A stretch of DNA of 64,000 nucleotides from assembly GCA_028868715.1 (NCBI GenBank), contig JAGWUB010000002.1:211388-275387 (forward strand), written 5' to 3'. This DNA is from Patescibacteria group bacterium. GTDB taxonomy: Bacteria > Patescibacteriota > Minisyncoccia > Phycocordibacterales > UBA9973. The notes beneath the pieces were generated by a model. It saw nothing but the letters and a program-made list of their open reading frames with translations, was not told where the DNA came from and made no database searches. The position numbers and the translations under genes were made by a program. Below are positions 5,263-51,798 of this stretch, in pieces; the first letter of the stretch is position 1; every line of letters starts with the position of its first letter.

Positions 5263-6228
5263 CTATTTTGTGCCGCAATGTGCCTTGAGGGCAGCTAGGT
5301 CGGTGGCGGTCAGCGCTGTGTTTGTGCCTTGATTTAATTTATACATTATGGCTTTGGGGTCATCTACGTGCTCTAGGCCAAGCGCGTGCCCGAGCTCGTG
5401 CGCCAAGACTCGCACCAATTTATCGCGATTGCTAAATTCATAAATATCTATTTCTTTATTGATGCCATCGCTGACATATAGCCCTTCTTCAAACGTTTCC
5501 CCGCGCGAAACGTTGGTGGTGTTGTATTTATCGACAGAGAGGTTTAGGGTGTTGATCAGGCGATTGAGGGCGACGACTAACGCATTTATTTCATCCGCTT
5601 GGGCGTTTAGATTGTTTTGCAAAACTTGGATTTGCTTTGATTCGGCTACTAGCTCGAGGCGAGTGGCTTCTAGTTTATTAAATTCCGCTTGGGGTGCTCC
5701 GTTTCGCGCATTCCAATATTGCACTTGCGTCTCGTAAGCTTGTTGTCTTTGGTTAAAAGACGCCACTTGGGTATTGAAAGCAGTTTTATTGATGTCGTAT
5801 TGCGCTTTCAGAGAATCAAACTTAACTTTTAACATATCGTACGATGAGCGGTTGTCCTCTACGGTAATCCCGAGACTGCTGAGTTTGCTCGTCGCCTGCT
5901 GGCGATAGTCATAAATTAAATTTACTTTTAAAACATCGGCTCCGGTGTCAGCGGGAGTATAGGTAAAGAGTTGTTTGCCATAGGGCTTTTCCCAGATAGC
6001 TTCCGCGTCGGCAAGAGCGCTAAGAAAATAACTTTTAGAAATACCAAACTGGGTGTCAAAAGTTCCGAGATTGTATGGTATTGGTTCGGCGCAAGGCACT
6101 GGTGGATGAATCCGCGACTCTATCTTGCTAAGAAGTGGCGCAAACTGAGTGCTAAGTGGCGCCCGAAATTGATACACCGATGCCACGAGAACGAGTAACG
6201 GTATTAAAATTTTTAAAATATTTTTCAT
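5263..6228 (-). CDS. secreted zinc metalloprotease, matrixin/metzincin-like with coiled-coil region
   Basis: Signal peptide; long coiled-coil (Q/N-rich heptads); C-terminal HELGHALGLEH (HExxHxxGxxH) plus a downstream Met-turn-like MYK. Confidence 0.65.
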   Translation of the reverse strand: MKNILKILIPLLVLVASVYQFRAPLSTQFAPLLSKIESRIHPPVPCAEPIPYNLGTFDTQFGISKSYFLSALADAEAIWEKPYGKQLFTYTPADTGADVLKVNLIYDYRQQATSKLSSLGITVEDNRSSYDMLKVKFDSLKAQYDINKTAFNTQVASFNQRQQAYETQVQYWNARNGAPQAEFNKLEATRLELVAESKQIQVLQNNLNAQADEINALVVALNRLINTLNLSVDKYNTTNVSRGETFEEGLYVSDGINKEIDIYEFSNRDKLVRVLAHELGHALGLEHVDDPKAIMYKLNQGTNTALTATDLAALKAHCGTK

Positions 6229-14649: not shown

Positions 14650-15105
14650 TCAAAAATTATATTTTTTTAGCAAGTGACTTTTATATATTTTTTCCTTGTG
14701 AGGCTTTAAACGTATTATTTTTACGATAAGACCTTTATTTTTTAAGTCTTTTTTTAGATTTTGTACGTAGGCTCTTTGGTCATATCCTAGGGCAATAATA
14801 TTGGGCTTTTCTTTTAAAATGTGTGGAATGTGATTCTTTACTCCAGAAAGTATTACTTTATCAACCAAGGGACATTTTTTTAATAAAATCATCCTTTTCT
14901 TTTCATTTAAAGTCGGATACTTACCCTTTATTTTCAAAACATTTTTATCACGTGCGATTGAAACTATCAGAAATGATGCTTGGTCTAATTTTTTAGCCTG
15001 TTTTAAAAAATTTAAGTGTCCCTCGTGCAGTCCATCAAAGGTACCAAACACCATTATTTTTACCCTACTTACTGGAGGGTTCTTTTCCACAGGTTTTTTT
15101 GACAT
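14650..15105 (-). CDS. cytidylyltransferase-like nucleotidyltransferase (FAD-synthetase/TagD-like)
   Basis: GTFDGLHEGH (HxGH) nucleotidyltransferase motif in a 151-aa protein. Confidence 0.65.
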   Translation of the reverse strand: MSKKPVEKNPPVSRVKIMVFGTFDGLHEGHLNFLKQAKKLDQASFLIVSIARDKNVLKIKGKYPTLNEKKRMILLKKCPLVDKVILSGVKNHIPHILKEKPNIIALGYDQRAYVQNLKKDLKNKGLIVKIIRLKPHKEKIYKSHLLKKYNF

Positions 15106-15149
15106 AAGTTAAGGTAAGTATATACTAAGTTAGTTCCTTTTAAAAATTA

Positions 15150-15328
15150 AGAGAAGTGATTGGGGAAACTGGTTAGATTCCAGTACAGTGCCGCTACGGT
15201 AAGTCCCGATACGCCAATTGGCGAATCGAGGAACAAGTCCGAATACCAATCATTTTACTAATCCCGAGCAGGATCCTCTCTCATTTTTTTGAGAGACCAC
15301 AAATTCTGCCCGAGCAGAATTTTTTTTA
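15150..15328 (+). promoter_or_regulatory. cobalamin (B12) riboswitch with intrinsic terminator expression platform
   Basis: 15162-15205 GGGGAAACTGGTTAGATTCCAGTACAGTGCCGCTACGGTAAG matches the cobalamin aptamer core. There is a B12-box-like AGTCCGAATACCAATC (15237-15252). A TCTCTC/GAGAGA hairpin is followed by the terminator TTCTGCCCGAGCAGAA+T9 (15304-15328), ending 3 nt before the ATG at 15332. Confidence 0.75.
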
Positions 15329-15331
15329 TTT

Positions 15332-15793
15332 ATGAGAAGAAATATAAAAATAATAATAGCCGTTATAATTTTCCTGTCACTTGGAATTTTAGGTTGGCAA
15401 AATATTCACAAGCAAACCCTTGGCAGGAGCGTTAGCAACGAACAGAAAAATTTTTTAGCAAAAAAATTTCTTGGTGAATCCGAGAATATTTTGCCAACCC
15501 AACTCAAAACCGCGGATATAGAAGTAAACGGTGTAAAATACCAAACTGAAATTTCACAAAACACCAGTGTATATGATTTTATGGATAAATTGCGAACTGA
15601 AGGAAAAATAAATTTTGAGGACAAAACCTATGTCGGGATGGGGAAATTTATTGAATCCATAAATGGGATTAAAAATACTGGAGACAAAAGCTGGATCTAC
15701 TATGTCAACGGCAAAGAGGCACAAATTGGGGTTTCAAATTATAAGATGAATCCGGGAGATGTCGTATCTTGGAAATATGAGAAGGGTTATTAA
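15332..15793 (+). CDS. signal-anchored DUF4430-family protein (putative cobalamin-binding beta-domain protein)
   Basis: 153 aa; N-terminal TM/signal; DUF4430-like pattern (YYVNGKEAQIGVSNYKMNPGDVVSWKY). It sits directly downstream of the B12 riboswitch. Confidence 0.65.
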   Translation: MRRNIKIIIAVIIFLSLGILGWQNIHKQTLGRSVSNEQKNFLAKKFLGESENILPTQLKTADIEVNGVKYQTEISQNTSVYDFMDKLRTEGKINFEDKTYVGMGKFIESINGIKNTGDKSWIYYVNGKEAQIGVSNYKMNPGDVVSWKYEKGY

Positions 15794-15807
15794 GTTGTTT
15801 AAAAAAT

Positions 15808-17631
15808 ATGAAAAAAATATTAAAAGTTTTAATGGTTGTTGGAATATTATTAGCCGGAGGAAATAATTTAGCTCACGCAGATCCTCAAAGTGTAAACCTG
15901 ACTGTTCGTGATGGAGCCACCATTGTCTTCTCTGGGGCTGTGACCCTACCTACGACCATAACCAGCTTAAATGATGCCACGAATACGCCACACACCATTA
16001 ATTCCAGTAGTGTGCTCTCGGTATTGGATAGTGCTGCCACAGGCACAGGTTCAAATTTTAGTATTTCCAATCTGACATATTTTAGCTCTTTTGATTCTCT
16101 TTATTTAAAGTGTATTACCGACCCAAGTGGAGAAAAATGTGACAACTGGCAATATGCTGTAAATGGCTCTGGTCCTAGTGTAGGTATGGATAAAAATATT
16201 TTAGCTGGTGGAGAAAATGTATATGTGTATTTTGGGCCACAAAATAAAATTACTTTGAGTTCAGGAAATATAAAAACCACGGATACTTTGACCGTCACCA
16301 CGCAAAACTATGATTATGTAAATAATGCTTGGATCACAAGAGCTGGAGTGACTGTGGGTTTGACCCAACCTGACCCAAGCAATCCTTCTACGCCAACTGA
16401 AGTTAAAACTAGTCCAGTAGACGCTAATGGTCAAGCAACCTTTTCATCAATTCCTGCTGGAAATTATAATGTCGGAGTAAAAGAAGATTATTATTTTCCA
16501 ACTGAAGCCCTTACTGTAGCTACTCCTCCACCAACATCGAGTGGAGGTGGAGGTGGAGGAGGTGGATACGTAGCGAGTGCTGGCAAAGTGCTCGGAGTCA
16601 CCACTACTAAGACCGGCTTTGATTTAAAACTGGCATCTGATTTTCTTGTAGCCCAACAAAAGCCAGATGGCTCCTTTGGCGAAGATCTGTATACTGACTG
16701 GGCGGGTATGGCTTTAGCATCTGGAAATTATCAGAATCAAGTAATAAAACTAATTAAACATTTTGAAGAATCCCCTATTGCTGGTACTAATCTTACAGAT
16801 TATGAGAGGCATGCGATGGCATTGATGGCTCTCGGTCTCAATCCTTATGATACCAATGGCACAAACTACATTAAAAAAATAGCCGATAGTTTTGACGGTA
16901 AACAATTTGGAGATCCAACTCAAAATAATGACGATATTTTTGCGCTAATAGTTTTACAAAATGCCGGATACGGACAAGATGAAAAAATGATAACTGATGA
17001 TGTATCTTTTATACTTAGTACCCAAAAACAAGATGGCTCTTGGGATGAAAGTATAGATATGACTGGAGCTGGCATAGAAGCTTTGTCCGCATTCAATAAA
17101 AGTGATCAAGTAAAAAGTTCACTAACTAAAGCAGAGGCATTTTTAAAACAAACAGAGGAGAGCAATGGAGGCTGGGGTGATAATGCATCTTCCACTGCGT
17201 GGGCCATCGAAGGCATATTGGCCTTGGGTGAAAAACCGGAAGATTGGAAAAAAAATGATCCGACAAATCCTGGTGTAAGTAATACTCCACTTGATTATCT
17301 GGCAACAATGCAAGATACAGATGGCGGAATAAAGGATGCTAATATACAAACTAAAATTTGGGAAACAACTTACGTGATTTCTGCCCTCTCTGGTAAAACT
17401 TGGAATCAAACTATGCAAACATTTGATAAACCTAAAGATGTTAGTAATGTTCCTGGTGCATCCCCTGAAATAAAACCTGCGACAAAACCTGTAGTAATGT
17501 TAAAAAAAATAACTCCAATCACATCCAAAACAACAATACATGAAATAACTTTACCGGAAACACAAAATCCACCAGCACTAATACCTAAACCAGAAAACTG
17601 GTTCTCCAGATTGATACATTTTATTTTTTAA
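15808..17631 (+). CDS. secreted protein with prenyltransferase/squalene-oxidase-type alpha-alpha toroid repeats (putative cobalamin-binding alpha-domain protein)
   Basis: Signal peptide; Gly8 linker; repeated QxxDGSW, GGWGDN and TAWAIEGILALG motifs characteristic of PF00432/PF13243 repeats; Pro/Thr-rich C-terminal tail. Confidence 0.65.
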   Translation: MKKILKVLMVVGILLAGGNNLAHADPQSVNLTVRDGATIVFSGAVTLPTTITSLNDATNTPHTINSSSVLSVLDSAATGTGSNFSISNLTYFSSFDSLYLKCITDPSGEKCDNWQYAVNGSGPSVGMDKNILAGGENVYVYFGPQNKITLSSGNIKTTDTLTVTTQNYDYVNNAWITRAGVTVGLTQPDPSNPSTPTEVKTSPVDANGQATFSSIPAGNYNVGVKEDYYFPTEALTVATPPPTSSGGGGGGGGYVASAGKVLGVTTTKTGFDLKLASDFLVAQQKPDGSFGEDLYTDWAGMALASGNYQNQVIKLIKHFEESPIAGTNLTDYERHAMALMALGLNPYDTNGTNYIKKIADSFDGKQFGDPTQNNDDIFALIVLQNAGYGQDEKMITDDVSFILSTQKQDGSWDESIDMTGAGIEALSAFNKSDQVKSSLTKAEAFLKQTEESNGGWGDNASSTAWAIEGILALGEKPEDWKKNDPTNPGVSNTPLDYLATMQDTDGGIKDANIQTKIWETTYVISALSGKTWNQTMQTFDKPKDVSNVPGASPEIKPATKPVVMLKKITPITSKTTIHEITLPETQNPPALIPKPENWFSRLIHFIF

Positions 17632-18235
17632 ACTCTACAACTTTGCCGGCTAAAATTTCTACTTTATCGGCTTTGCGCAGGTTTTTGATTTGAGATTTAG
17701 AAAGAATGTCGTAATGCTTTTGCTTGTCTAGGGCCTTGTCTATATACCACAGATCCCCTTCGGCGGTAGCCCAATTTCGACTGTTGAATTTATTTAAATT
17801 TAGTGGAGCAGAATATTTACGCAAGGTCTTTTGCCCATTATCTAAAAAATATTCGTGAAAATAAGACATCACGAGTTCACGGATGTTTTTATAGATCGGT
17901 TCCCGATATCGTAGTACAGCATGATTTGTCTTGGATAAAGCGCCCCAGTGGCCATTCTGCTTGAATGAAGTGATAACGTGGTCAAAGTCCCCTTTGGTGG
18001 TCTGTAGGTGTAGCACACATGGAGTAAACCCATGCAAGGAAAGAATGTATGCTCCTAGGATAGCCCCCTCAATGCAATGAGCGTTGTGAGTACGAACAAC
18101 CATAAGTGGTGACTTTAATGTATCCACTCCATTCTTCTCAAAATTAAACTGGAGTTCATTTAGAAAACTCTGCACCTTGGCTGGTGTATTTAGTTTGTGG
18201 AGTAATGCCTTTTCAGCTTTAGTGAACGCTAACAT
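17621..18235 (-). CDS. hypothetical protein, possibly papain/transglutaminase-like Cys-His fold
   Basis: 204 aa; candidate catalytic Cys in NAHCIEGAILG and downstream His residues. Weak assignment. Confidence 0.4.
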   Translation of the reverse strand: MLAFTKAEKALLHKLNTPAKVQSFLNELQFNFEKNGVDTLKSPLMVVRTHNAHCIEGAILGAYILSLHGFTPCVLHLQTTKGDFDHVITSFKQNGHWGALSKTNHAVLRYREPIYKNIRELVMSYFHEYFLDNGQKTLRKYSAPLNLNKFNSRNWATAEGDLWYIDKALDKQKHYDILSKSQIKNLRKADKVEILAGKVVEFKK

Positions 18236-18938: not shown

Positions 18939-19490
18939 TTAATCTTTTTTGTAAAAATGAGCAACTGCCAAAAGGGTGAGAAGAGCGAAAAATGCTGTCA
19001 GCGCGAGCATGGGAATGGAAATATATCCGCCAAATTCAGAAACTAGGTGCTGATAGCATGATACTCCCGAAGCATCGCATGGAGTGTTTGTGGTTTCTCC
19101 AAAATAATAGAAAAAATTCTGATATGCCGAGACTAGAAAACCGATAGATAAGAGTGGGGCGACATATTTTACAATTTTTCTGTCTTGAGTCCAAAAGGCA
19201 ATGCCGAAAAGGAAAAATGATGGGAACATAAATACTCTCTGCCACCAACACAAGACACATGGAAGAAAATGAATGATTTCAGAATAAACCAATGGAAATA
19301 GCGAAGCGAAAAAGGAAATTAAAAAGCTGAGTACAAGGAAATGTTTACTGACATAATCCAGAAATTTATTCCTACTGTTTTTTTTATAAACAAAAAAAAG
19401 TAAAAATAGTGTAATGACTGAAAGAATCTGCAGAGCTATTGCTCCAGCTCCAAGAAAGACATTCAAATAGTGTATATTGTCGGGATTCAT
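18939..19490 (-). CDS. DsbB/BdbC-family disulfide bond formation protein
   Basis: 4 TM helices; CVLCWWQR (CxxC) in loop 1 and a second Cys pair, PCDASGVSC. Confidence 0.75.
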   Translation of the reverse strand: MNPDNIHYLNVFLGAGAIALQILSVITLFLLFFVYKKNSRNKFLDYVSKHFLVLSFLISFFASLFPLVYSEIIHFLPCVLCWWQRVFMFPSFFLFGIAFWTQDRKIVKYVAPLLSIGFLVSAYQNFFYYFGETTNTPCDASGVSCYQHLVSEFGGYISIPMLALTAFFALLTLLAVAHFYKKD

Positions 19491-19497
19491 TTTTTTA

Positions 19498-19911
19498 TTA
19501 TTGAGGTAGTGTACAGGAAGTGGCAGAAGCTAACGTCTCGAGCTTGACTCCTGCGCCATCTGGAGAATCATCGGGAATTCGGGTGCCATCGGCCAGTATC
19601 CAAGTAGGGTAACTTTTTATTCCTTTATCTATACAAACTTGTAGTTGCCCTCCTCCATCAGCGGTAGAACATTCTACATATGGTAAGAGATGAGCTGAAG
19701 AACCGAAAGCTCTCTTTTGAGCTTGGCAATGTGGACACCAGAAAGCGCCATAAAAGGTTGCGCCTTTATCCTTCAAGCAAGTCGCAAAAGCATCATATTT
19801 TCCTGGGCCTGCGGGCACTTCTTTGCTCCTTAATAAAACTGTGCCGATTAATCCTAAAACCAAAATACCTATTACTAATAAGAAGATTTTTACGTTATTT
19901 TTATTATCCAT
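19498..19911 (-). CDS. membrane-anchored thioredoxin-fold thiol-disulfide oxidoreductase (DsbA/BdbD-like)
   Basis: N-terminal TM; FWCPHCQAQK CxxC active site. Confidence 0.75.
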   Translation of the reverse strand: MDNKNNVKIFLLVIGILVLGLIGTVLLRSKEVPAGPGKYDAFATCLKDKGATFYGAFWCPHCQAQKRAFGSSAHLLPYVECSTADGGGQLQVCIDKGIKSYPTWILADGTRIPDDSPDGAGVKLETLASATSCTLPQ

Positions 19912-21852: not shown

Positions 21853-23595
21853 TTATACTCTTTCTCCTATTTGCTGTCTCCACATAGCAGAATACAGTCC
21901 TTGTTTAGCCAAAAGCTCGGCATGCGCGCCAGATTCAGTTATGGCACCTTTTTCCAAGACATAGATAGTATCGGCATGCATAATCGTGGAGAGCCGGTGC
22001 GCAATCAAAATAGTAATGCGAGACTCTCCTTCTGAGACATCGCGAATTGTTTTGGTTATTTCTTCTTCGGTCAAAGAATCGAGCGACGAAGTCGCTTCGT
22101 CAAAGATTAAGATATTTGGTTTACGCAATAGGGCCCGAGCGATAGAAAGTCTTTGTTTTTCACCACCGGAAACTTTCACGCCTCCTTCACCGATAAGTGT
22201 ATCTATCCCTTTATCAGCTCTTTTCAAGAGAGATTGAGCGGCGCTTTTTTGCAACGCATCCAAACATTCTTTCTCCGTCGCGTTTGGATTCACGAAAAGT
22301 AAATTTTCTCTGATTGAGCCTGCAAAAAGCTGGGTGTCTTGAGTGACAAATCCAAATTGGCTACGCAATTTATTTAAATTTAATTCATTTTCTTTGATGC
22401 CGTTGTAGAGTACGCTCCCTTCTTTGGGTTCATATAGCCCAACCAAAAGCTTTACTAGGCTAGTTTTTCCTGCTCCTGACGGACCCACAAAGGCTATCGT
22501 CTGTCCGGATTTAACTTCAAAGGAGATATTGAGTAGAGCCGGCTTTTCGGCATTGCTATATGCAAAAGTAACATCATCAAACTTTAATGCCGATATTTTT
22601 TCAATAACTTTGGGGTTGATGGGCACAGGTTCGATGGGCGTATCCATTATTTGTTTAAATCTACCGAGCGCCACTTGGGCATCGCGATAATTGTTGATAA
22701 CGGTGCCCAGTTCTTGCAAGGGACCAAAGATAAAAAATGAATATATATAAAGAGAGAAAAATTGCCCAAAAGTAACTGTGCGAACAAAAACAAGATAGAG
22801 CAAAAAAGCTAATATGATGGTTCGCAGAAAATTTATCATGGTACCCTGCACAAAGCTAACACTTCGGATATAGCGAAGTTTTTTCAGTTCAAGTTTTAAA
22901 ATTTTATCGGTAGTATTATTTAGACGTAAAATTTCCTGATCAACTAACCCGAGACTTTTCACTAGTTCAATATTTCTCAAAGACTCAGTCGTAGATCCAG
23001 CTAGTGCTGTCATTTCGGTGAAAATTATTTTTTGAATCTTTTTTACCTTACTTGTCAGTAGATAACTGGCTATGCCAATAATCGGTATGGTGAGTGCGAA
23101 TACTATCGCCACGCCAAAGTATATATGAAAGGCATAAATAGTGACAAAAATGAAACCAATCAATGACACAAACAGCACATTGATAAATGAAGTAACGAAT
23201 AGCTCACTGGTAGTACGCACATTTTGCAATATACCTAGAGTTTCCCCGCTACGCTGATCTTCAAAAACTGCATATGGTAAGGCTAGTGAGTGTTCTATGC
23301 CATCGTTATAAATTTTTGTCCCCAAACGTTGAGTTACGGTATTTAAATAATAATCCTGAAAATTCTTGGCTACTCGAGACACAAAAGCCGCGCCGACAGC
23401 TATGGCCAGTAAAAAAGAAACTCCACCTAAAAATTGCTTCAAGGTAAATGAATTAAACTTGGTGGCATAGTCGTCTATCACGTGTCGAAAAATAAGTGGA
23501 TCAAGCAAAGAAAAGACTTGATTTACAGTCGCCAACACGAGAACTAGAACACAAAGTTTCCAATACTTTTTCAAATAGTGATAAAAAATTCTCAT
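21853..23595 (-). CDS. ABC exporter, fused permease-ATPase (MsbA/MdlB-like)
   Basis: 6-TM domain followed by NBD with Walker A GPSGAGKT, signature VSGGEKQR and Walker B ILIFDEATSSLD. Confidence 0.9.
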   Translation of the reverse strand: MRIFYHYLKKYWKLCVLVLVLATVNQVFSLLDPLIFRHVIDDYATKFNSFTLKQFLGGVSFLLAIAVGAAFVSRVAKNFQDYYLNTVTQRLGTKIYNDGIEHSLALPYAVFEDQRSGETLGILQNVRTTSELFVTSFINVLFVSLIGFIFVTIYAFHIYFGVAIVFALTIPIIGIASYLLTSKVKKIQKIIFTEMTALAGSTTESLRNIELVKSLGLVDQEILRLNNTTDKILKLELKKLRYIRSVSFVQGTMINFLRTIILAFLLYLVFVRTVTFGQFFSLYIYSFFIFGPLQELGTVINNYRDAQVALGRFKQIMDTPIEPVPINPKVIEKISALKFDDVTFAYSNAEKPALLNISFEVKSGQTIAFVGPSGAGKTSLVKLLVGLYEPKEGSVLYNGIKENELNLNKLRSQFGFVTQDTQLFAGSIRENLLFVNPNATEKECLDALQKSAAQSLLKRADKGIDTLIGEGGVKVSGGEKQRLSIARALLRKPNILIFDEATSSLDSLTEEEITKTIRDVSEGESRITILIAHRLSTIMHADTIYVLEKGAITESGAHAELLAKQGLYSAMWRQQIGERV

Positions 23596-28942: not shown

Positions 28943-29956
28943 TTAAATATTGAATAGTGGGTTGATAATACCGAGTCCAGCCAGCCCAGCCAAGAGCGCA
29001 AATAATCCAAAGCCGATAACTACGACCCCAGCTGATTTAAAGAATAGTGGCGCATATTTTCCGTGAGCGATTGAAGCCGAGCCAAATGATAGCAACAAAA
29101 GCATCGGCAAGGTTCCTAGAGCAAAAGCAAGCATGATGAGAAGACCAATAGTAAAGGATCCACTTCCAAGCGCCGCAAACTGCATTGATTGAGTAAATCC
29201 ACAGGGTAAGAAGAATGTACCGAAGCCCACTAGAAGTGGCGCAAAGGTTTTATGTTCTACCTTTCTAAAAAAATTAAAAATCCCCGATGGCAGTGTGATT
29301 TTATTTTTAGCAAATACTCCGACTAAATTTAAACCTAAATACAACATAATAAGTGATGCAACAATTCCTAATATTGCTGTAGTCGTAAATGTAGAATTAA
29401 TAGGTATGGCGCTACCCACCACCCCGAGAACTCCCCCTAATACCGCAAAGCTTACTAATCTACCACTATGAAAGAGAAAGAAAGTTTTGGTGTCACTCTC
29501 ATTGTCTTGTGATACTTTGGCTGAAAGTGAGAGCACCAGCCCGCCGACAATGGCCAAGCAGGAAGAAACTGAAGCAATGAGTCCAATGATAAATGCGGTT
29601 GCTGGTGTAGTCTTGCCACCGATGCCCAAGTTGAGAATACCTGATTTTTGTAACAGGAAAAATAAAAGTAAAAATCCAAGCCCAATGGGTATAGCTTTCC
29701 AGGTGGTGTTGTCACTCTCTTTTTCTGAAATAATTTTTTCTACTGAAAGAGTGTATCCGTTTGGTCTTATTTTTTCGCTCAAAATACCTGCCATTTCTTC
29801 TGGACTTTTTTCACTATCAACTTCTACTTCCACGACTTCCTTATTTAGATCAACCTGAACATTTTTAACAAAATCTTGCTCTTGCAAAACATCTTCGATT
29901 AAGATTTTACATGCTGCACAATGCGTACCCGAAACATGAAATGTATATTTTTTCAT
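28943..29956 (-). CDS. HMA (heavy-metal-associated) domain fused to a two-Cys polytopic membrane domain (DsbD/CcdA-like)
   Basis: N-terminal SGTHCAACK metal-binding motif in a ferredoxin-like domain. The membrane domain has conserved Cys in SVSSCLAIVGG and FFLPCGFTQ. Confidence 0.6.
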   Translation of the reverse strand: MKKYTFHVSGTHCAACKILIEDVLQEQDFVKNVQVDLNKEVVEVEVDSEKSPEEMAGILSEKIRPNGYTLSVEKIISEKESDNTTWKAIPIGLGFLLLFFLLQKSGILNLGIGGKTTPATAFIIGLIASVSSCLAIVGGLVLSLSAKVSQDNESDTKTFFLFHSGRLVSFAVLGGVLGVVGSAIPINSTFTTTAILGIVASLIMLYLGLNLVGVFAKNKITLPSGIFNFFRKVEHKTFAPLLVGFGTFFLPCGFTQSMQFAALGSGSFTIGLLIMLAFALGTLPMLLLLSFGSASIAHGKYAPLFFKSAGVVVIGFGLFALLAGLAGLGIINPLFNI

Positions 29957-29959
29957 AAA

Positions 29960-32332
29960 TTATAATTTTATACTTTTAATTCTAAGTGAATTGGAAACTA
30001 CGGACACGCTCGACATCGCCATCGCGAATCCAGCAAACACCGGCGAAAGTAGCCAGCCAAATATTGGATAAAAAAGCCCAGCTGCTAGTGGAATTCCAAC
30101 AATGTTATATATAAAAGCCCAGAAAAGATTCTGCTTGATTCCACGCATGGTTATTTTGGAAAGTTTAATTGCTTTGACGAGCTTGGAAATATCTCCACCC
30201 AAAAGAGTAATCCCGGCTGACTCAATAGCCACGTCGGTGCCTGTACCCATAGCGATACCCACATCAGCTTGTGCTAATGCTGGAGCGTCGTTCACTCCGT
30301 CCCCCGCCATAGCCACAATGTGTCCCTCCGTTTGTAATTTTTTAATCTTCAATAATTTATCTGCCGGCAAGACATGCGCCATGACATCATCAATACCCAC
30401 AAGTGATGCAATATATTTGGCAGCCCTTTCATCGTCTCCAGTAACCATAATTACTTTGATTCCGAGTTTATGTAGGTTGTCCACTGCTTGCTTGGATTCT
30501 GCCTTTATTTCGTCAGCTACCATCACAAACCCAAGCACTTTCTCGCTCGTAGCCAGGATAACTGGTGTCTTACCTTCCGCGGTAAATTGTTCTAATTTGG
30601 CAGTATCGAAAGAAAGTTTTAAGTCTTGTATTAGTTTTGCGTTCCCAACAAAATACTCTATTCCATCGATTGACCCTTTTAGACCCTTGCCTTGTATTCC
30701 CTCAAAATTTGAAGTATCTACTATTTTTATTTTTTTATCTTGGGCGTAGTTAACAATGGCATGAGCAATTGGATGCTCAGATTTTTTTTCTAAGGATGTC
30801 AAGATTGAAATAAATTTTTCGTCCGACAAGTCTGAAGAATTTTGAATATCAACCAGTGTAGGTTTGCCGATAGTAATCGTGCCAGTTTTATCTACAATGA
30901 CTGTATCTACTTTATGAAGTTTTTCCAAGGTTGCCGCATCTTTGATCAAAATTCCCTCGCGAGCACCCTTGCCGACTCCAACTATAATTGCCGTCGGCGT
31001 GGCCAGCCCGAGCGCACAAGGACAAGCAATCACCAGTACGCCGACAAAAGAAACCAAGCCGAATGAGAGTGCTTGTGAAAATCCTAGTGGCCCCGCCCCA
31101 ACAAGCAACCATATTCCGAGAGTTGCAAAAGCGATTACCAATACAATCGGCACAAAGATACTTGAAATTTTATCAGCTAAGGCCTGTATGGGGGCTTTAC
31201 TTCCTTGCGCATCTTCTACCATCTGTATGATATGAGCAAGAAGTGTTTCCGCGCCGACTTTGGTACCTTTGAAGGTAAATGCGCCACTGGTATTGATAGT
31301 ACCCGCCACCACACTATCACCAACTTTTTTGGAAGCAGGCATTGGTTCACCGGTCACCATTGATTCATCGACAAAAGATGCCCCTTCGGTAATTATTCCA
31401 TCTACTGGAATTTTACTTCCGGGTTTTACAATAATTAAGTCGCCGTGCACCACTTGATCAATTGGGATCTCAATTTCTTTCCCACCTCTGGTGACTAGAG
31501 CGGTTTTGGCCTGAAGATTAAGTAATTTTTCGATGGCATCGCCAGTTTTTAATTTAGATCTTGCTTCCAGATATTTTCCGAGAGCAATAAAAGTAATGAC
31601 CACAATAGTCACATCATAATAAGTCTGCGTGACATTAATAAAGGGGGCCAGTGATTTTTCAAATGCAGTAACAATAAAACTATATAAAAATGCTGTGATG
31701 GTGCCGATGCCGATCAAGGTATCCATATTTGCTTTACCGTAGCGGAGAAAACGATAGAAGCCAAGTAGGTATGGCTTACCGACAACAAAGAGTGTGTAGG
31801 CCGCCATTATTGGTAATAAGTGATGAAAAAATTCGCCTAGGTTGTAGCTCATTTCTGGCACAGCTTTGTACTCTGCTAAAATGTCCCAAGCCATAATAAA
31901 GATACTTATCACTGCAAGTGGAATAGCCGAGATAACTTTGTTCCGCATATCTTTAATTTCTGCCAACTTTTCAGCCTTGGATTGATTGAGCCCCAAGTGT
32001 GCAGCATGCTCGTCCTCACTCATACCCATTTCGCTCGCCGACATATTCATATTGTGTGCGTCTGATGCAACTAGAGAATACCCTAGTGGCTCTAACTTTT
32101 TATTGAAAGATTCTGGGTTGGTTTTACTTTGATCAAAAGATATTTTTGCATTTTCAGTGCCATTATTAACAGCAATAGATTCTACGCCGTCAATTTTTTT
32201 GACAGTTCGCTCGATAATGCTGGCGCATGAAGCACAATGCATACCTTTTACTTTAAAGGTTTTTGTATACATATTATTTTCTCTTAAGTTTATAAACCTT
32301 AAGTATCTCGGTAGTAGCTTTACCTGTGTCAC
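29960..32332 (-). CDS. copA: copper-translocating P1B-type ATPase
   Basis: N-terminal HMA (GMHCASCAS), [25 protein letters not shown]. The start may be at the internal MYTKTF (32272). Confidence 0.93.
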
Positions 32333-36231: not shown

Positions 36232-36302
36232 CTGGGAGACTTGGACTCGAACCAAGATAACATCCTCCAGAGGGATGTGTCCTACCATTAGACGATCTCC
36301 CA
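36232..36302 (-). tRNA. tRNA-Gln (anticodon CUG)
   Basis: Cloverleaf folded by hand: acceptor TGGGAGA/TCTCCCA, anticodon stem CATCC/GGATG with loop CTCTGGA, T-arm CTTGG-TTCGAGT-CCAAG, discriminator G. No encoded CCA. Confidence 0.8.
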
Positions 36303-36377
36303 ATCTATATACCCTAACACCGTAAACTTAACACATTTTCACTAGAACATAAAGGGTTTATTTGGTATAATTAATGT

Positions 36378-37133
36378 ATGAGCAAAAGCCATAAAAATAA
36401 AGCAATCTTTTATGTGGTAATTCTAATTCTTTTAGTTGGATTGGGGTTGTTTTTGAAACAAAAAAAGGCAATTGCGCCTTTAGTTACTGAAAATCCTACG
36501 AGTCAGACTCAAGAAAATACAAGCCCAGTTTCCATTGGTTCTAAAACTATCAAGGAAGAAAATTTCACGGGGACGGTATCTACGGTTTCCGGCAAAAGTA
36601 TCCTCGCAGCAAAATCACAAGCGTATATCGACCAAGAAGTGAATGATTTTCGAAAACAAGCCAACAATGATGTCCCACCAATGCGACAAAAATTTGGAGC
36701 TGATAGTCCTACAGCGCAATACGAGATTGATATTGAGGCAAAATATGTAAAAAGTGAAAAGACAGAGTCAGTCTCAATCCTCACTTATACCTACACTGGT
36801 GGTGCGCATGGTAACAGTTCTTATAAAGTCATTACTACTACGTTAGTTAGTGGAAAAATTTTATCCTTGTCTGATGTCATTAAAAAAGGTAAAGAAAGCG
36901 CTTTTACTACATACGTAAAGAAAGCCTTAAATGACTGGCGACCAGAAGGTTCAGATGGTTCACCCGTCTTCCCTGAAGACGTCCAAGCTTTGACCTTTAA
37001 CTCGTTTGCTAATTGGTCCTTAGACAACACAAATCTGATAATCTACTTTAGCCAATACGACATCGGACCAGGAGTGCTGGGTCCAGTAGCTTTTCCGCTA
37101 CCAATAGAAAAAATCAAAGATTTTCTCCAATAG
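36378..37133 (+). CDS. membrane-anchored DUF3298/DUF4163 (RsiV/PdaC C-terminal-like) protein
   Basis: N-terminal TM; TYTGGAHGN signature of DUF3298. Confidence 0.7.
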   Translation: MSKSHKNKAIFYVVILILLVGLGLFLKQKKAIAPLVTENPTSQTQENTSPVSIGSKTIKEENFTGTVSTVSGKSILAAKSQAYIDQEVNDFRKQANNDVPPMRQKFGADSPTAQYEIDIEAKYVKSEKTESVSILTYTYTGGAHGNSSYKVITTTLVSGKILSLSDVIKKGKESAFTTYVKKALNDWRPEGSDGSPVFPEDVQALTFNSFANWSLDNTNLIIYFSQYDIGPGVLGPVAFPLPIEKIKDFLQ

Positions 37134-37162
37134 TACTCTAACTTATTTACTAAAATATAAAA

Positions 37163-38809: not shown

Positions 38810-38826
38810 TGGGACTTTTTGCTATT

Positions 38827-39744
38827 CTATTTATTTAAATATCTTCTAATTGCCAAGAAGCTGGAAACAATACCGAGGAACACCCCAAACAGTAAATTGA
38901 TTACAAAAATTTGAAATATGTTTGAAATATAATAATCGTAGATATTAAATCCAAAGAAGTTGGTCATATTTCTACCGAGCCAAAACGTGACTGGCCAAAA
39001 TAGGATCAAGGTCGCGAACGTAGCAATAATACCATAAATTACCCCTTCCACCATAAAGGGACCTCGCACGTACATTTTAGAGGCTCCGACTAGACGCATG
39101 ACACCTATTTCGTCTCTGGAAATAAAGATAGCCAGCCTAATAGTATTGAAAGTAATAATAATGGAAATAATCACCAAAATCAGAGTAATGAGAAAGCCCA
39201 ATTCGTGCGCCCCAGCAATTAGAGAGTTCAGTCTATCTATCACAAGTTTATTTTGGTTATAATTTATCTTGTCTATGATATTCGTATAATCCGACATCAC
39301 TGGGTTGTCTCCTTTGATAAAATTAGCTATTCCCTCATATTGAGAAATGTCTTTGGCTTTAATATTTAGATAAGCGCCGAGTGGATTTGTTCCTAATTCG
39401 TCGAGAGCAGCAATCGTAGGGTAATCGTTTTCATGGCGGGAGCGGAAAAGGTCTAGCGCCTGCTTGTCGCTCGTATACGAAACATCGGCTACTTCGGGCA
39501 ACTTCACAAGGGCATCTTTTAACGATAGTATCTTATCTTCGGGGGCGCCGACATTGAAGTAGATAGTTATATCAACTTTATCTTTGATATTATTTAACGA
39601 GAAATAAAGTACTGACTGTAAGATAATAATGGTGGTAACAAAAGAAAGAGTGATGGTTACTATCAATACTGCTGCAAAAGAAATCAAGCCACTTCGCTTA
39701 AAGTTTAAAAATCCGGCTTTGATAATTCTTTTTAATTCAGTCAT
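38827..39744 (-). CDS. ftsX: cell-division ABC transporter permease FtsX
   Basis: FtsX topology: TM, large extracytoplasmic loop, 3 C-terminal TMs. Immediately downstream of ftsE. Confidence 0.85.
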   Translation of the reverse strand: MTELKRIIKAGFLNFKRSGLISFAAVLIVTITLSFVTTIIILQSVLYFSLNNIKDKVDITIYFNVGAPEDKILSLKDALVKLPEVADVSYTSDKQALDLFRSRHENDYPTIAALDELGTNPLGAYLNIKAKDISQYEGIANFIKGDNPVMSDYTNIIDKINYNQNKLVIDRLNSLIAGAHELGFLITLILVIISIIITFNTIRLAIFISRDEIGVMRLVGASKMYVRGPFMVEGVIYGIIATFATLILFWPVTFWLGRNMTNFFGFNIYDYYISNIFQIFVINLLFGVFLGIVSSFLAIRRYLNK

Positions 39745-39771
39745 GAATATAGTAGCGATTATAGCACAAAC

Positions 39772-40443: not shown

Positions 40444-40455
40444 CTTTTTATCTTA

Positions 40456-41340: not shown

Positions 41341-41362
41341 GTTTTCAGTATAGCAAATAAAA

Positions 41363-41393
41363 GATGGGTCGACATTTCTGTCGACCCGATTTT
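41363..41393 (-). terminator. rho-independent terminator (perfect 9-bp-stem palindrome GGGTCGACA-nnnn-TGTCGACCC)
   Basis: On the minus strand the hairpin is followed by a T-rich tract, immediately after the 41413-41670 gene and before the prfB promoter (TATACT). Confidence 0.6.
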
Positions 41394-41412
41394 GAGAATC
41401 AAAGACTCTCGA

Positions 41413-41670: not shown

Positions 41671-41744
41671 TGGTATCCTGAATCTTTATTAAGAATATCT
41701 GTATTATCATTTATTGTGAAGTTTTTTAACATCCATCGGGTAAT

Positions 41745-42443: not shown

Positions 42444-42515
42444 GCCGATGGACAGGATTGAACTGTCGACCCCCGCTTTACGAAAGCGGTGCTCTACCAA
42501 CTGAGCTACATCGGC
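42443..42515 (-). tRNA. tRNA-Thr (anticodon CGU)
   Basis: GCCGATGTAGCTCAGTTGGTAGAGCACCGCTTTCGTAAAGCGGGGGTCGACAGTTCAATCCTGTCCATCGGCT. Anticodon loop TTCGTAA. Confidence 0.85.
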
Positions 42516-48362: not shown

Positions 48363-48920
48363 TTATTGATAACTAGGTTTTATTTCTTCTTCGCCTTCTA
48401 TGTGACTAGAAATGCGCGCTAAGGCATAGAGTAAACTAGATAACCGATTTAAATATTGCCTAGATTCTGCAGAAACGTTTCTTTTCCCTTCTTCTTGCAC
48501 AGCCACTACCCTCCTCTCTGCTCTTCTCGCTAGTGTTCGTGCAAAATCAAACATACCACCTACTTCTGTTGCACCAGAAATAAAAAATGTTTTTATCGGT
48601 GGCAACATTTTTTCAATACCATCCACCAATGCCTCTACTTCTTTTATCTTATCTTCGCTGATGCTCATCTCTGATCCAGCCACTTCGGCCTGAACTATGA
48701 AAAGATTTTGCTGAACCACTAAAATAACATCGGAAAACTTTTGTTCACCTGATTCTATTTTAAAACTCATACCTTTAGTTTTCGCCCGAGTAAAACCAAG
48801 AAAAGAGTTCACTTCATCGAGTGTACCTAGCGCTTCCGCCACAAGTGAACTTTTTGAAACCCGTTGGTCACAACCGAAGGTCTTGGTAGTGCCATCGTCC
48901 CCTTTCCTGGTATACAACAT
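48363..48920 (-). CDS. pduO: PduO-type ATP:cob(I)alamin adenosyltransferase
   Basis: MLYTRKGDDGTTKTFG...LNSFLG matches the PduO-type N-terminus (IYTKTGDKGTTSL). Start placed at the internal ATG (48920), 11 nt after the nrdJ stop. Confidence 0.85.
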   Translation of the reverse strand: MLYTRKGDDGTTKTFGCDQRVSKSSLVAEALGTLDEVNSFLGFTRAKTKGMSFKIESGEQKFSDVILVVQQNLFIVQAEVAGSEMSISEDKIKEVEALVDGIEKMLPPIKTFFISGATEVGGMFDFARTLARRAERRVVAVQEEGKRNVSAESRQYLNRLSSLLYALARISSHIEGEEEIKPSYQ

Positions 48921-48931
48921 AGTTTTTTTAG

Positions 48932-51238
48932 TTAGATCTCGCAGACTCCAGAGACACAAGCAAATTCTTTTGCTCCTACGGTATTGTCAGTAGCCTCGTA
49001 TTGAGAAAGTTTTGAGAAATCAATCTTACCGATAGCTTTTGAACGTCTTTCGTATTCTTCCTTTTTTATTTCTTCATATGGAGCTAGCTGATAGACGTGT
49101 TCTGATCGTGGCAGGAAAGAAAGTCCACCAATCCAATCCCAATTTTCGTAAACGAAATTACCTACAGCTATCCACTCATCTGGGCCAACATAAATAGTTG
49201 CCGATGGATTGTGTTCTACAAAGTGCTCTTTGAGTCTCTTCCATTCCTTCATTAAATCTAAAGCTGAAACTTCATCTTTAAAGATAGCTCCTTGGGGTGC
49301 TTTTACTGGGAATTCCAGAACAAACGTGGTGGCTGTGTCTTCTGATTGCCCGACTTCGGGTAAACATGGCACTCCTTGATCTCGAGCCATTTGCAGTAAT
49401 GTATCAGTGTGAGAAATGCGTACTCGGCGAATAAAATATGGAGCGTACCAAGGGTGCATACCTGAGCCGACTCCTAGGAGCTGACCGGAATTTCCGTGTG
49501 GCTTTACGCAAGTGATCGCAGTAGAAGAATTAATCCCAAAACGTTTTGCATATTTTTTATTTACTTCAACCGAATGTGCTTTTAGAGCGTCCAATACTTT
49601 ATCTTCGCGAACAATCGGATTATCGTAATATCCAGTGAGTGATACTCCGAGCAATCTTTCTTCGTCACAATTTTCTTTCCATTTTTTTGAAAGATAACCA
49701 AAATTAGTTAAGGTAGATTGATATGTTCCAAGTAAGGTAGCGAGTTCTATCTTTCTCTTTAGTGTCGCTGCTGTGTCTTTTGGACGGATGACTATACTGG
49801 TTAAATTACAAAATTGCTTTGATCTCAAATAAATTTCTCCGCAAGGATTTAATCCGATCTGTCTTTCGTCTTTGATAGCTGCCCATCTACGCGCTGGTAC
49901 TTGTTTCTCTAGTCCTGCTCGGTTGAAAATTCCACGCTCACCAGATTTTGATTTTACAAGTGCAGTCCACTCATCCAAGAATTCTTCTGCTCCAGGCTTT
50001 GCATTATAAACTGCAGAATTATTTGCCATAGCTCTCTGACCTTCAGTGAGATAAAATTGTCCTTTCTTTGAGTCTCGCATTTCTGTATCTTCAAGTTCGG
50101 AAAGAGAGATGAGTGCGCTACGTCGTACTCCTCCGGCGACAACGATCAAACCGATCTGGCAGATGATATCGTGCATATCTAAGTTTGAAAGTCTTCTACC
50201 TTGTTTAGATAAAATTTTACGTTTAGAAAATTCCATCAAGTCCATTAGTGGTTGCGGTCCGGAAGCTTTACCTCCAGCTGTTTCTAGACGTGAACCAGCT
50301 GGTCTGATCATTCCATAATCAAACTTCACATCTCTGCCATCAAACCAAGCATTTAATCCCAAAACAAAAGCATCCGCCCAACCTTCTTTACTATCTACGA
50401 CTACGTGCGTCGGAGCTTTTTCTTTTATTTGTTTCTTGATTTGTGGAAATTTTTGAACATTTTCCCATTCAACTGCAAAGCCAAGCCCTGCTCCACACAT
50501 AGAGACATACATGATCTCGCCAAGGTCTTGGGTGCAGGTAGGAGCAATATATGAACAATTATAAGCCCAAACATTAGACTGACGACAAGCTTTGCCAGCA
50601 GACCATAAAAGTCGCATAGATGGGCAAATATCTTGATTTAAGATAGCTTCTCTGACGTCTTCATACTCTTTAGCGGTAAGTTTGTTTCCGAGGTTCTCCT
50701 TCATGTAAGCCATGTAGCGATCAATAGTTTCTATCCATGTCTCACGACGGCCAAGCTCTGGAATCCAACGAGAATAAAATTGGTAGAAAATATATTCTGA
50801 GTAAGGGCTTGAAAAATATTTACTAGATTCTTCGACAGCAAGACGAACTGCTTCTGGTACTGGACCAAATTCTGCTCGAAGAAGAGAACGCTTGTTACGA
50901 TAAAGTATGTAGCTCTTGGCTGTAGCGGTAAAATCATTTTTCATCAACTCTTTTTCTACAAAATCTTGGACTATCTCAACTGTGGGCAAAAATTTTGCAC
51001 CCTTGTGTTTGTTTACTAACTCAGTCCGCAATTCGAGAAGGTTTTTAAAAACACTATTAGCTACCTTGTGAGATTCAGTTTCTCCACCTTCACCTGTGAC
51101 TTCAAAAGCTTTAGAAATGGCTCCAGCGATAATTTCTAAATCAAAAGGAATTACCTCCCCGCTTCTCTTGCGAATTGATTTTATTTTTGATAATTCGCTT
51201 TTTGAAATTTTTTCTTTTGTTTTTGTTTTTGTTGTCAT
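48932..51238 (-). CDS. nrdJ: class II (adenosylcobalamin-dependent) ribonucleotide reductase NrdJ with N-terminal ATP-cone
   Basis: NPCGEIYLRSKQFCNLTSI (NPCGE thiyl-radical Cys plus CNL) is the class II hallmark. N-terminal ATP-cone-like segment; C-terminal Cys pair ACVSGVC. Confidence 0.85.
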   Translation of the reverse strand: MTTKTKTKEKISKSELSKIKSIRKRSGEVIPFDLEIIAGAISKAFEVTGEGGETESHKVANSVFKNLLELRTELVNKHKGAKFLPTVEIVQDFVEKELMKNDFTATAKSYILYRNKRSLLRAEFGPVPEAVRLAVEESSKYFSSPYSEYIFYQFYSRWIPELGRRETWIETIDRYMAYMKENLGNKLTAKEYEDVREAILNQDICPSMRLLWSAGKACRQSNVWAYNCSYIAPTCTQDLGEIMYVSMCGAGLGFAVEWENVQKFPQIKKQIKEKAPTHVVVDSKEGWADAFVLGLNAWFDGRDVKFDYGMIRPAGSRLETAGGKASGPQPLMDLMEFSKRKILSKQGRRLSNLDMHDIICQIGLIVVAGGVRRSALISLSELEDTEMRDSKKGQFYLTEGQRAMANNSAVYNAKPGAEEFLDEWTALVKSKSGERGIFNRAGLEKQVPARRWAAIKDERQIGLNPCGEIYLRSKQFCNLTSIVIRPKDTAATLKRKIELATLLGTYQSTLTNFGYLSKKWKENCDEERLLGVSLTGYYDNPIVREDKVLDALKAHSVEVNKKYAKRFGINSSTAITCVKPHGNSGQLLGVGSGMHPWYAPYFIRRVRISHTDTLLQMARDQGVPCLPEVGQSEDTATTFVLEFPVKAPQGAIFKDEVSALDLMKEWKRLKEHFVEHNPSATIYVGPDEWIAVGNFVYENWDWIGGLSFLPRSEHVYQLAPYEEIKKEEYERRSKAIGKIDFSKLSQYEATDNTVGAKEFACVSGVCEI

Positions 51239-51243: not shown

Positions 51244-51798
51244 TTAAATTATTTTAGGGTTAAGAATATTAATGGAAGATACTACCGACTTTCGTTTCCT
51301 TTTTTTTATCAGAAACTTATATATGGCGGGAGATAAAACTAAAGCAAAAGAAATGTTTCCCAAGAGATGCAGTGCGGTAAATGGAATCTGTCCGACGAGT
51401 GTAGTCAGAAACGATTGATGGAAGAACAATGGACCGATAGTTAAGCCCGTCACAGCATCAAAAAACAAAGTTCCAATGATTGCAAAACGCACGTAACTCC
51501 ATCTGTCTGAATTATGCTTCTTAAAATAACTTGCAGACCAAAAACCTATTACTCCATAAGCTCCAGTGGTAAATAAAGTTTGCAAACCAAGTGTTCCAGT
51601 TAATACATCGTAGAGTAAAATACTTAAAACGGCAAAAGAAAAACCCGCAAGGGCTCCATAGTACTTACTAAATGGCATAGTGGTCGCTAATATTGGTTCA
51701 ATATTTGGTGCGCGTAGCGGAAGAAGTCGTACGAGAAGACACAAGACAAGTCCAACTGTAAATTTAAAATAATTTTTTTTGCCTGAATCCATAGACAA
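51244..51798 (-). CDS. ECF-transporter S-component-like 6-TM membrane protein (substrate unknown; B12 candidate by context)
   Basis: 184 aa with 5-6 TM helices and the size/topology of an ECF S component. It is the first gene of the nrdJ-pduO operon. Confidence 0.45.
   Translation of the reverse strand: MSMDSGKKNYFKFTVGLVLCLLVRLLPLRAPNIEPILATTMPFSKYYGALAGFSFAVLSILLYDVLTGTLGLQTLFTTGAYGVIGFWSASYFKKHNSDRWSYVRFAIIGTLFFDAVTGLTIGPLFFHQSFLTTLVGQIPFTALHLLGNISFALVLSPAIYKFLIKKRKRKSVVSSINILNPKII

Follow-up and report, generated by a model that had tools for sequence, protein, structure and literature searches.

Vertebrate transcobalamin and intrinsic factor bind vitamin B12 (cobalamin) between an N-terminal alpha6/alpha6 toroid and a C-terminal beta domain. 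In Bacteroides the riboswitch-regulated surface lipoproteins BtuG and BtuH capture B12 with high affinity and feed a membrane transporter; BtuG is a beta-propeller, and both are outer-membrane proteins that deliver to the TonB-dependent BtuB. Closer to the locus considered here is the SLBB superfamily, defined by Burroughs, Balaji, Iyer and Aravind in 2007 (Biol Direct 2:4, PMC1796856). These authors described bacterial transcobalamin-like SLBB domains to which a toroid is fused on either side, with fusions or insertions of immunoglobulin (Ig) folds and with another SLBB gene in the operon that encodes an extracellular paralog, in hosts without B12 synthesis, and they predicted that the SLBB + toroid proteins scavenge B12 outside the cell. 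Two other systems are relevant. In Lactobacillus delbrueckii, the structure 6fnp is that of the vitamin B12 transporter ECF-CbrT (ECF, energy-coupling factor), and CbrT has been proven experimentally (Santos et al. 2018, PMC5997447); its gene lies within an nrdJ-cbrS-cbrT-pduO cluster (PMC5997447). In L. sakei, as far as the cited passages of a preprint go (bioRxiv 10.1101/864751), Lsa1839 (beta) and Lsa1840 (alpha) are separate exported proteins for which capture of a tetrapyrrole and its hand-over to an ECF S-component have been proposed.

In this study we analyze a stretch of 64,000 nucleotides from a Patescibacteria group bacterium (assembly GCA_028868715.1, contig JAGWUB010000002.1, positions 211,388 to 275,387 of the forward strand), hereafter the window, in which a cobalamin riboswitch precedes an operon of two genes, referred to as gene 1 and gene 2. 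A preliminary reading of this stretch, made from the sequence alone (the sequence-only reading), had interpreted the two genes as the two halves of a secreted device for B12 capture. As a novelty that idea does not stand, the same architecture having already been predicted as a bacterial B12 scavenger (PMC1796856). Our results indicate that the locus is probably a B12-repressed operon with which this member of the Patescibacteria (candidate phyla radiation, CPR) captures cobalamin or a related corrinoid outside the cell. This interpretation is carried by the riboswitch, by the folds and export signals of the two proteins, by the structure of the operon, by the conservation of the module, and by its linkage to genes for the import, activation and use of B12.

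The elements of the leader, numbered from the first letter of the window, are the following.

15099..15126, + strand: sigma-70-like promoter (consensus match only)
15114..15268, + strand: cobalamin riboswitch aptamer (RF00174 match, Rfam)
15263..15275, + strand: conserved CCCGAGCAGGAU box, predicted antiterminator arm (invariant in leaders, pairing)
15301..15327, + strand: intrinsic terminator (9-bp stem, 15301-15309 with 15314-15322; CCGA loop; U8)

A search of the whole window with Rfam finds a single riboswitch, a match to RF00174 at 15114-15268 (+) that spans the full model (positions 1-189) and, at 42.0 bits, exceeds the gathering score of 31.5 (E = 3.3e-7 over the whole window, 1.8e-9 in the local search). 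The sequence-only reading had expected an RF00174 match in this leader, with the riboswitch core string beginning at 15162: the match was obtained at a score above threshold, and the position of the string is borne out. In the alignment to the model, AAGUCCGAAUACCAAUC falls on the B12-box part. The best-scoring promoter site of the leader region, as judged by consensus match only, is the pair formed by a -35 hexamer TTGACA (15099-15104) and a -10 hexamer TATACT (15121-15126), separated by a 16-nt spacer and matching 11 of 12 consensus positions; its -35 element overlaps the start of a divergent gene (14650-15105).

The CCCGAGCAGGAU box lies directly 3' of the aptamer and is invariant in 7/7 aligned leaders. 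Within it, GCAGGAU (15269-15275) can pair with AUUCUGC (15303-15309), which belongs to the 5' arm of the terminator, and the box is thus predicted to be an antiterminator arm. The alternative antiterminator fold of 15240-15312 has a predicted energy of -17.1 kcal/mol (z = -4.55), the terminator hairpin at 15301-15322 one of -9.3 kcal/mol (z = -7.5), and the two structures are predicted to be mutually exclusive: this combination of a terminator with an exclusive antiterminator predicts an OFF switch that operates by transcription termination. The U8 run (15320-15327) is followed by AUUU and then by the ATG of gene 1 at 15332. The hairpin and U-run before the ATG had been recognized in the sequence-only reading, but as a run of nine U ending 3 nt from the start codon, where there are eight and the distance is 4 nt. 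We regard the leader as a genuine cobalamin riboswitch coupled to a predicted expression platform, in which the choice between the two folds would depend on the ligand and follow OFF logic. A weak match to STnc370 at 15260-15330 (24 bits against 54) corresponds to the terminator. Neither gene is preceded by a Shine-Dalgarno-like sequence (15320-15331 for gene 1; 15794-15807 for gene 2); the gap between the genes (15794-15807) reads GTTGTTTAAAAAAT, and the ATG of gene 1 stands only those 4 nt past the U-run.

The first gene of the operon is described by one line.

15332..15793, + strand: gene 1, 153 aa (PF14478 DUF4430; AlphaFold2 (AF2) model; Foldseek)

With 51.2 bits to PF14478 (DUF4430) in Pfam, well above the cut-off of 23.8, and an N-terminal hydrophobic helix, gene 1 is the signal-anchored DUF4430 protein that it had been taken for. 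It is composed of a hydrophobic anchor helix (aa 5-21), a disordered linker (28-55) and an SLBB/DUF4430 domain (60-151). In the AF2 model, which was built from 52 homologs, the domain has a predicted local distance difference test score (pLDDT) > 90 and consists of strands 60-65 and 68-73, a helix at 80-89, a hairpin at 95-100/104-110, and strands 119-125 and 144-151. This is a beta-grasp in which a beta-hairpin is inserted behind the helix, as in the clade signature of PMC1796856. A Foldseek search with the model returned 19 PDB matches at E <= 1e-3, and all 19 are either beta domains of transcobalamin, haptocorrin or intrinsic factor (E from 8.5e-7 to 1.9e-4 for these carrier domains) or the bacterial DUF4430 protein 3u7z; the next class of matches, ubiquitin-like and MoaD-like proteins, has E values of at least 0.03. 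The template-modelling (TM) score to the isolated human transcobalamin beta domain, whose structure has been solved both apo and with bound cyanocobalamin (5no0, 5np4), is 0.76. A similarity of the DUF4430 fold to the transcobalamin beta domain, which the sequence-only reading had put forward tentatively, is thus verified. Searches of the PDB sequences with gene 1 and with the profile of its family gave no meaningful match: the link between the module and transcobalamin is visible by fold search only, and not by sequence or profile searches of the PDB.

The second gene has a more complex architecture.

15808..17631, + strand: gene 2, 607 aa (sequence motifs, AF2 model)
15808..15879, + strand: Sec signal peptide, aa 1-24 (...LAHA/DPQ; read from the sequence, AF2 helix at aa 2-18)
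15889..16242, + strand: divergent SLBB/DUF4430-like beta-grasp domain, aa 28-145 (PF14478, hhalign, AF2)
16243..16521, + strand: Ig-like/prealbumin-like beta-sandwich, aa 146-238 (AF2 all-beta, pLDDT > 90)
16522..16617, + strand: flexible linker including the Gly8 run, aa 239-270 (pLDDT < 50 at aa 246-264)
16618..17427, + strand: 12-helix alpha6/alpha6 toroid, aa 271-540 (AF2, modelled helices within aa 273-535)
17428..17631, + strand: Pro/Lys-rich disordered tail, C-terminal hydrophobic helix and stop (pLDDT < 50 at aa 545-593)

The secretion signal, the toroid motifs (QKQDGSW, NGGWGDN), the Gly8 run and the Pro/Lys-rich tail on which the sequence-only reading had based its description of gene 2 are all present, and the toroid was correctly recognized; what had been missed are the first ~240 residues, that is, the SLBB-like and Ig-like domains. 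The AF2 model, derived from 74 homologs, has a mean pLDDT of 85.7 and a predicted TM score (pTM) of 0.54, too low to define how the domains are arranged; the linker, some 30 residues long, is disordered and therefore presumably flexible. For the Ig-like domain Pfam gives weak matches to CarboxypepD_reg and SpaA. The assignment of the SLBB-like domain draws on the family as a whole, since PF14478 is matched at E <= 0.01 by 46 of the 74 family members (best E = 6.8e-8), and on the alignment by hhalign of gene 1 aa 60-145 with gene 2 aa 49-138, which share a W-x-Y-x-V-N-G...G motif. Two cysteines of this domain are conserved, Cys102 being invariant and Cys111 present in at least 90% of the members. 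Judging from these models and alignments, gene 2 alone appears to hold both building blocks of transcobalamin, in the reversed order beta-Ig-linker-toroid. As it carries both, to call the system 'split' is only partly right.

The toroid itself is less informative. In the gene 2 family the Pfam matches are to SQHop_cyclase_C (74/74), to the TED domain (65/74) and, weakly, to PF01122 Cobalamin_bind (34/74, best E = 3e-8). A search of the PDB sequences with the family profile finds cyclases only, and at E <= 1 neither this profile nor the gene 2 protein matches transcobalamin, intrinsic factor or haptocorrin. The fold is generic, terpene cyclases and intrinsic factor matching it about equally, and the modelled toroid, although it would suit a transcobalamin-like role, is no indication of one when taken alone. 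NCBI's name for the gene 2 family, 'terpene cyclase/mutase family protein', probably does not describe it correctly, for reasons given below.

Some further characteristics of gene 2 deserve mention. Its C-terminal helix (aa 598-606, NWFxxLxxxIF; consensus KKNWFxxLxxxIF, with W598 in at least 90% of the 74 homologs) is shorter than a normal transmembrane segment; it may tether the protein to the membrane or the cell wall, or act as a docking peptide. Three homologs of 808-1057 aa (P0002, P0003, P0093) carry two tandem SLBB-Ig modules before a single toroid, and P0093 has additional N-terminal Ig-like repeats. The possibility that P0002 and P0003 (~810 aa) are natural fusions of gene 1 with gene 2 was considered and rejected: it is gene 2's own SLBB-Ig module that is duplicated.

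Conservation of the module was studied by scanning one genome per species, which gave 156 loci with a relative of gene 2; 80 of these were kept and are the basis of all the 80-locus counts reported here. These loci are labelled nearly all Nomurabacteria, Paceibacterota or related names, with one record labelled Burkholderiales. A homolog of gene 1 is located immediately upstream of gene 2 in 75 of the 80. Four of the five loci without it (L048, L050, L062, L033) have little or no upstream room: the first three are cut by contig ends, while in L033 the riboswitch stands directly upstream of gene 2. Of 11 loci sampled, Rfam at its gathering threshold recognizes RF00174 in six and AdoCbl-II (RF01689) in one, always just upstream of gene 1. 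A covariance model of our own, made from seven aptamers and searched in the 80 loci, detects an aptamer on the correct strand and in the correct place in 69 of them. In an alignment of 70 aptamer sequences 96.4% of the cells are paired, with compensatory changes in 19 of 28 pairs; none of 500 shuffles reaches any of these measures, and slid registers yield 24-47% pairing. A hairpin with a U-run follows 63 of the 70 homologous aptamers, as determined by a crude test with no background model. Overall, the recurrence of the order riboswitch-gene 1-gene 2 in dozens of genomes, together with the covariation of the RNA, is more than can be attributed to chance. As a variant, in L063 (5221-5298) the element upstream of the DUF4430 gene is AdoCbl-II (RF01689, 57 bits), which replaces the RF00174 class.

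The operon of the gene pair consists of two genes only and has no transporter gene, as the sequence-only reading had observed; what it had not noticed is a candidate transporter component elsewhere in the window, a relative of which lies upstream of the module in 26 other loci. This candidate belongs to a cluster of three genes.

51244..51798, - strand: CbrT-like ECF S-component, 184 aa, multiple transmembrane segments (profile match 6fnp_A, PF07155, context)
48932..51238, - strand: ATP-cone + RTPR-like class II ribonucleotide reductase, 768 aa (TIGR02505, PDB 1l1l)
48363..48959, - strand: PduO-type ATP:cob(I)alamin adenosyltransferase (TIGR00636, 132.3 bits against 108.45)

In the window this cluster is on the minus strand, 33 kb away from the gene pair. 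The S-component has about 5-6 hydrophobic helices; PF07155 is matched by 25 of the 27 members of its family (best E = 1.5e-9), homologs are named 'ECF transporter S component' by NCBI, and the only PDB match of the family profile below E = 1 is 6fnp_A (E = 0.0016), a chain that on the basis of its 182-aa length we take to be CbrT. The best match of the reductase is TIGR02505, with 285 bits (under the cut-off of 340), and it matches PDB 1l1l with E = 2.6e-41.

When the open reading frames of the 80 loci were clustered, two kinds of neighbourhood were recognized. In 28 loci the module is directly preceded, on its own strand, by a class II ribonucleotide reductase, and in 26 of these a small membrane protein, the CbrT-like S-component, adjoins the reductase. 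A corrinoid adenosyltransferase is present in 19 of the 28 reductase loci and in 17 of the 26 that have the S-component. Its slot is filled mostly by the PduO type and in three loci by the CobA/BtuR type (L017, L054, L063; for example L063:4695-5216, PF02572, E = 5.7e-51), a case of non-orthologous replacement. Typically, as in L049 and L045, the genes for the membrane protein, the reductase and PduO come first, in this order, and are followed by the riboswitch and then by the DUF4430 and toroid genes; in L040, which lacks a riboswitch, 13 nt (5370-5383) separate PduO from the start of the DUF4430 gene. No riboswitch was detected before the reductase cluster of the window either by Rfam or by our covariance model: that only the capture genes are under riboswitch control fits a high-affinity scavenging front end, needed when B12 is scarce.

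The other neighbourhood, in about 34 loci, has the synteny of the window, with RNase J, a major facilitator superfamily (MFS) transporter, HtrA and a cytidylyltransferase-like gene upstream, and a vasohibin-like gene, DsbB and a thioredoxin-like gene downstream. In the window the gene pair is flanked by the divergent cytidylyltransferase-like gene (14650-15105) and by the convergent vasohibin-like gene (17621-18235). Other recurrent neighbours are diacylglycerol kinase, DoxX, RecG, a type II secretion system ATPase and a P-type ATPase. All these recurrent neighbours look like lineage synteny. A search for transporters in the conserved neighbourhood found no B12 transporter besides the CbrT-like gene, and an MsbA-like ABC protein (21853-23595), considered as a BacA-type B12 importer, is unsupported, being common to only 5 loci.

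The vasohibin-like gene (17621-18235, -) encodes a transglutaminase-like protease fold and overlaps the last 11 nt of gene 2; it matches PF14822 with 25.2 bits against a cut-off of 24, and is found downstream in 39 of the 80 loci. DsbB-like and thioredoxin-like CxxC genes occur near the module in many loci (18939-19911, -, in the window), and in 8 loci the two follow gene 2 directly on the same strand (for example L031:7803-8742, L042:7802-8963); taken together with Cys102 and Cys111 of gene 2, this neighbourhood makes a dedicated disulfide-forming pair possible. In seven loci (L017, L029, L035, L039, L040, L063, L065; for example L063:7825-8172) the gene that comes next after the toroid gene, in the same orientation, encodes a protein of ~115 aa with an ArsR-family helix-turn-helix; SLBB-ArsR fusions have been noted in archaea by Burroughs et al. 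2007 (PMC1796856). Elsewhere in the window there are a transfer-messenger RNA (54641-55040, +, 124 bits) and six tRNA genes (36232-52130, -), both from Rfam, and a heavy-metal cluster (28943-32332) with a protein combining a heavy-metal-associated (HMA) domain with a DsbD-like part and a P-type ATPase with an HMA domain.

These results can be combined in a scheme of B12-repressed capture. At high intracellular B12 the aptamer would be occupied, the CCCGAGCAGGAU box would be unavailable, and the terminator at 15301-15327 would end transcription ahead of gene 1; under B12 scarcity the antiterminator would form and both genes would be expressed. Gene 2 would be exported by the Sec route, and its SLBB domain and toroid may close round one corrinoid molecule, by analogy with transcobalamin. 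Gene 1 would add another SLBB domain, which its N-terminal anchor would keep at the membrane on a disordered tether of ~30 residues, and we suppose that it too binds the corrinoid. The route that seems most likely to us is one in which gene 2 captures the ligand, the anchored SLBB domain of gene 1 receives it, and the CbrT-like S-component imports it; PduO would then adenosylate the imported cobalamin for the class II ribonucleotide reductase. A bolder reading, of a riboswitch-gated relay of two stages in which the membrane-tethered SLBB domain is the receptor of a secreted 'transcobalamin' and delivers the vitamin to a CbrT-type S-component, is a tentative extension that we would not rate as likely. 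If true, the vertebrate carrier-receptor pathway would have a counterpart in prokaryotes, possibly related to its ancestor, by which ultra-small symbionts would capture B12 from their surroundings or from the surface of the host cell for the synthesis of DNA precursors.

A number of observations weigh against the interpretation of the locus as a capture operon for B12, and should be considered together. The SLBB-like domain of the gene 2 protein of the window scores 23.6 bits to PF14478, 0.2 below the cut-off of 23.8; its link to gene 1 by hhalign is weak (E = 7e-4, probability 26%); and at E <= 0.01 the protein has no Pfam match to PF01122. The acidic motif DNDD of the family (NNDD at aa 373-376 of the window protein) resembles the DxDD of class II cyclases. 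The riboswitch was not detected in L040, L054, L069 and L073, despite enough upstream sequence. The CbrT-like label derives from a weak profile match (E = 0.0016) and generic S-component matches in Pfam, and the energising module EcfA/A'/T was found neither in the 64-kb window nor in the 80 loci. Such a result is normal for S-components that share one energising module. Finally, our search of the literature found no B12-binding data for any bacterial member of the SLBB + toroid family, and in the cited passages of the L. sakei preprint the ligand proposed for the pair is heme (bioRxiv 10.1101/864751).

The alternative that best survives is the one closest to the original idea of two halves, namely a strictly split transcobalamin, in which a heterodimer of the gene 1 beta domain and the gene 2 toroid would make up one B12 site, the N-terminal domains of gene 2 serving as no more than spacers or anchors. 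The adjacency of the two genes in 75 of 80 loci speaks in its favour, as does the fact that gene 1 is nearer than the N-terminal domain of gene 2 to the DUF4430/transcobalamin-beta consensus (51.2 versus 23.6 bits), and in the passages of the preprint cited here the split beta/alpha pair Lsa1839/Lsa1840 of L. sakei is modelled as a heterodimer (bioRxiv 10.1101/864751). However, gene 2 has an SLBB-like domain of its own, which is recognized by Pfam in 46/74 members and has conserved cysteines, and its linker is long enough for this domain to fold back onto the toroid; the larger homologs P0002, P0003 and P0093 duplicate the SLBB-Ig module of gene 2 instead of fusing gene 1; and in L033 riboswitch and gene 2 occur without gene 1. 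The beta domain present in gene 2 and the lack of gene 1 in L033 make the strict split less economical, and we consider it unlikely. Of the claim with which the sequence-only reading ended, the role in B12 capture is well supported, but the division into strict halves is not.

A second alternative would keep the binding of a ligand and change its purpose or its identity: the corrinoid could be sequestered for something other than uptake, as in competition or piracy at the host surface or in storage, or the ligand could be cobinamide, a cobamide analogue or heme. Patescibacteria are widely seen as episymbionts, which agrees with the first of these possibilities, and so does the lack of a transporter gene in the operon. 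As for the ligand, heme has been put forward for the L. sakei homologs in the passages cited (bioRxiv 10.1101/864751), and cobinamide is also carried by ECF-CbrT (PMC5997447). Against this stand the repression by a cobalamin riboswitch, which is the usual logic of genes for uptake and synthesis, and the close association with the genes for the CbrT-like protein, the reductase and the adenosyltransferase, which points to the supply of adenosylcobalamin to the cell; only a small chance is left, in our opinion, to this alternative. It is, lastly, very improbable that gene 2 is a secreted enzyme (a terpene cyclase/mutase, or a toroid of the glycoside-hydrolase or thioester-domain type) with an incidental riboswitch, as might be suggested by its best sequence matches (SQHop_cyclase_C, squalene-hopene cyclase), its DxDD-like family motif and its NCBI name, because the protein carries a Sec signal that puts it outside the cell, away from isoprenoid substrates, is modelled with a single 12-helix toroid rather than the two-toroid beta-gamma architecture of cyclases, scores about one tenth of the cut-offs of the cyclase families (39.8 versus 431 bits for TIGR01507, 38.1 versus 323 bits for TIGR01787), and is fused to or paired with SLBB domains, under a riboswitch in 69 of 80 genomes and in a setting of B12 gene clusters.

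The capture of B12 by this operon would have a clear significance for its hosts. Patescibacteria have minimal genomes, and many depend for their deoxynucleotides on a B12-dependent class II ribonucleotide reductase; given this reliance, obtaining B12 is a bottleneck for their replication. The locus and its conserved linkage make up a complete candidate route from the exterior of the cell to the enzyme. The riboswitch is also independent evidence that the bacterial SLBB + toroid proteins, for which this had long been predicted, deal with B12, and as such it bears on the proposal that the B12 carriers of animals were acquired from bacteria.

The comparison with known systems brings out both what is shared and what is different. 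Like the systems of Burroughs et al. 2007, the locus combines SLBB, toroid and Ig domains and has a second SLBB gene in the operon. Those systems, however, are from Firmicutes and archaea and usually have CbiO/CbiQ-type genes in the operon, whereas here, in the Patescibacteria, the operon encodes the two binding proteins only and is preceded by a cobalamin riboswitch, a word that is absent from PMC1796856; the linked genes, a CbrT-like S-component, a class II ribonucleotide reductase and an adenosyltransferase, are also unlike those of the earlier systems. In the literature we found no description of the module or of its riboswitch in Patescibacteria, nor of transcobalamin together with a riboswitch.

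The vertebrate carriers transcobalamin, intrinsic factor and haptocorrin (PF01122 + PF14478; 2bb5, 2pmv, 4kki) have the toroid first and the beta domain second, while gene 2 has the reverse order and an extra Ig-like domain; here there is an additional beta domain, separately encoded and membrane-anchored, the sequence identity is only 10-17%, and expression is under riboswitch control. The presumed partner is an ECF S-component, in place of the CD320 or cubilin of the vertebrate carriers. By sequence and by domain order, the protein lies outside the eukaryotic PF01122 family, and the module plausibly works like the carriers of that family. BtuG and BtuH are functional analogues of the module with unrelated folds. 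The L. sakei system differs in having the whole ECF system in one operon, and no riboswitch is mentioned in the passages cited (bioRxiv 10.1101/864751). The gene content of the window cluster at 51798-48363 (CbrT-like, class II ribonucleotide reductase, PduO) is that of the L. delbrueckii cluster, although the S-component has only a remote similarity to L. delbrueckii CbrT (E = 0.0016) and no ECF module was found nearby; in 26 loci of Patescibacteria the CbrT-like/reductase cluster is contiguous with the riboswitch module. With respect to all these systems, what is new here is the lineage, the evidence for cobalamin at the level of the RNA, and the cluster that ties the family to an S-component, a reductase and an adenosyltransferase.

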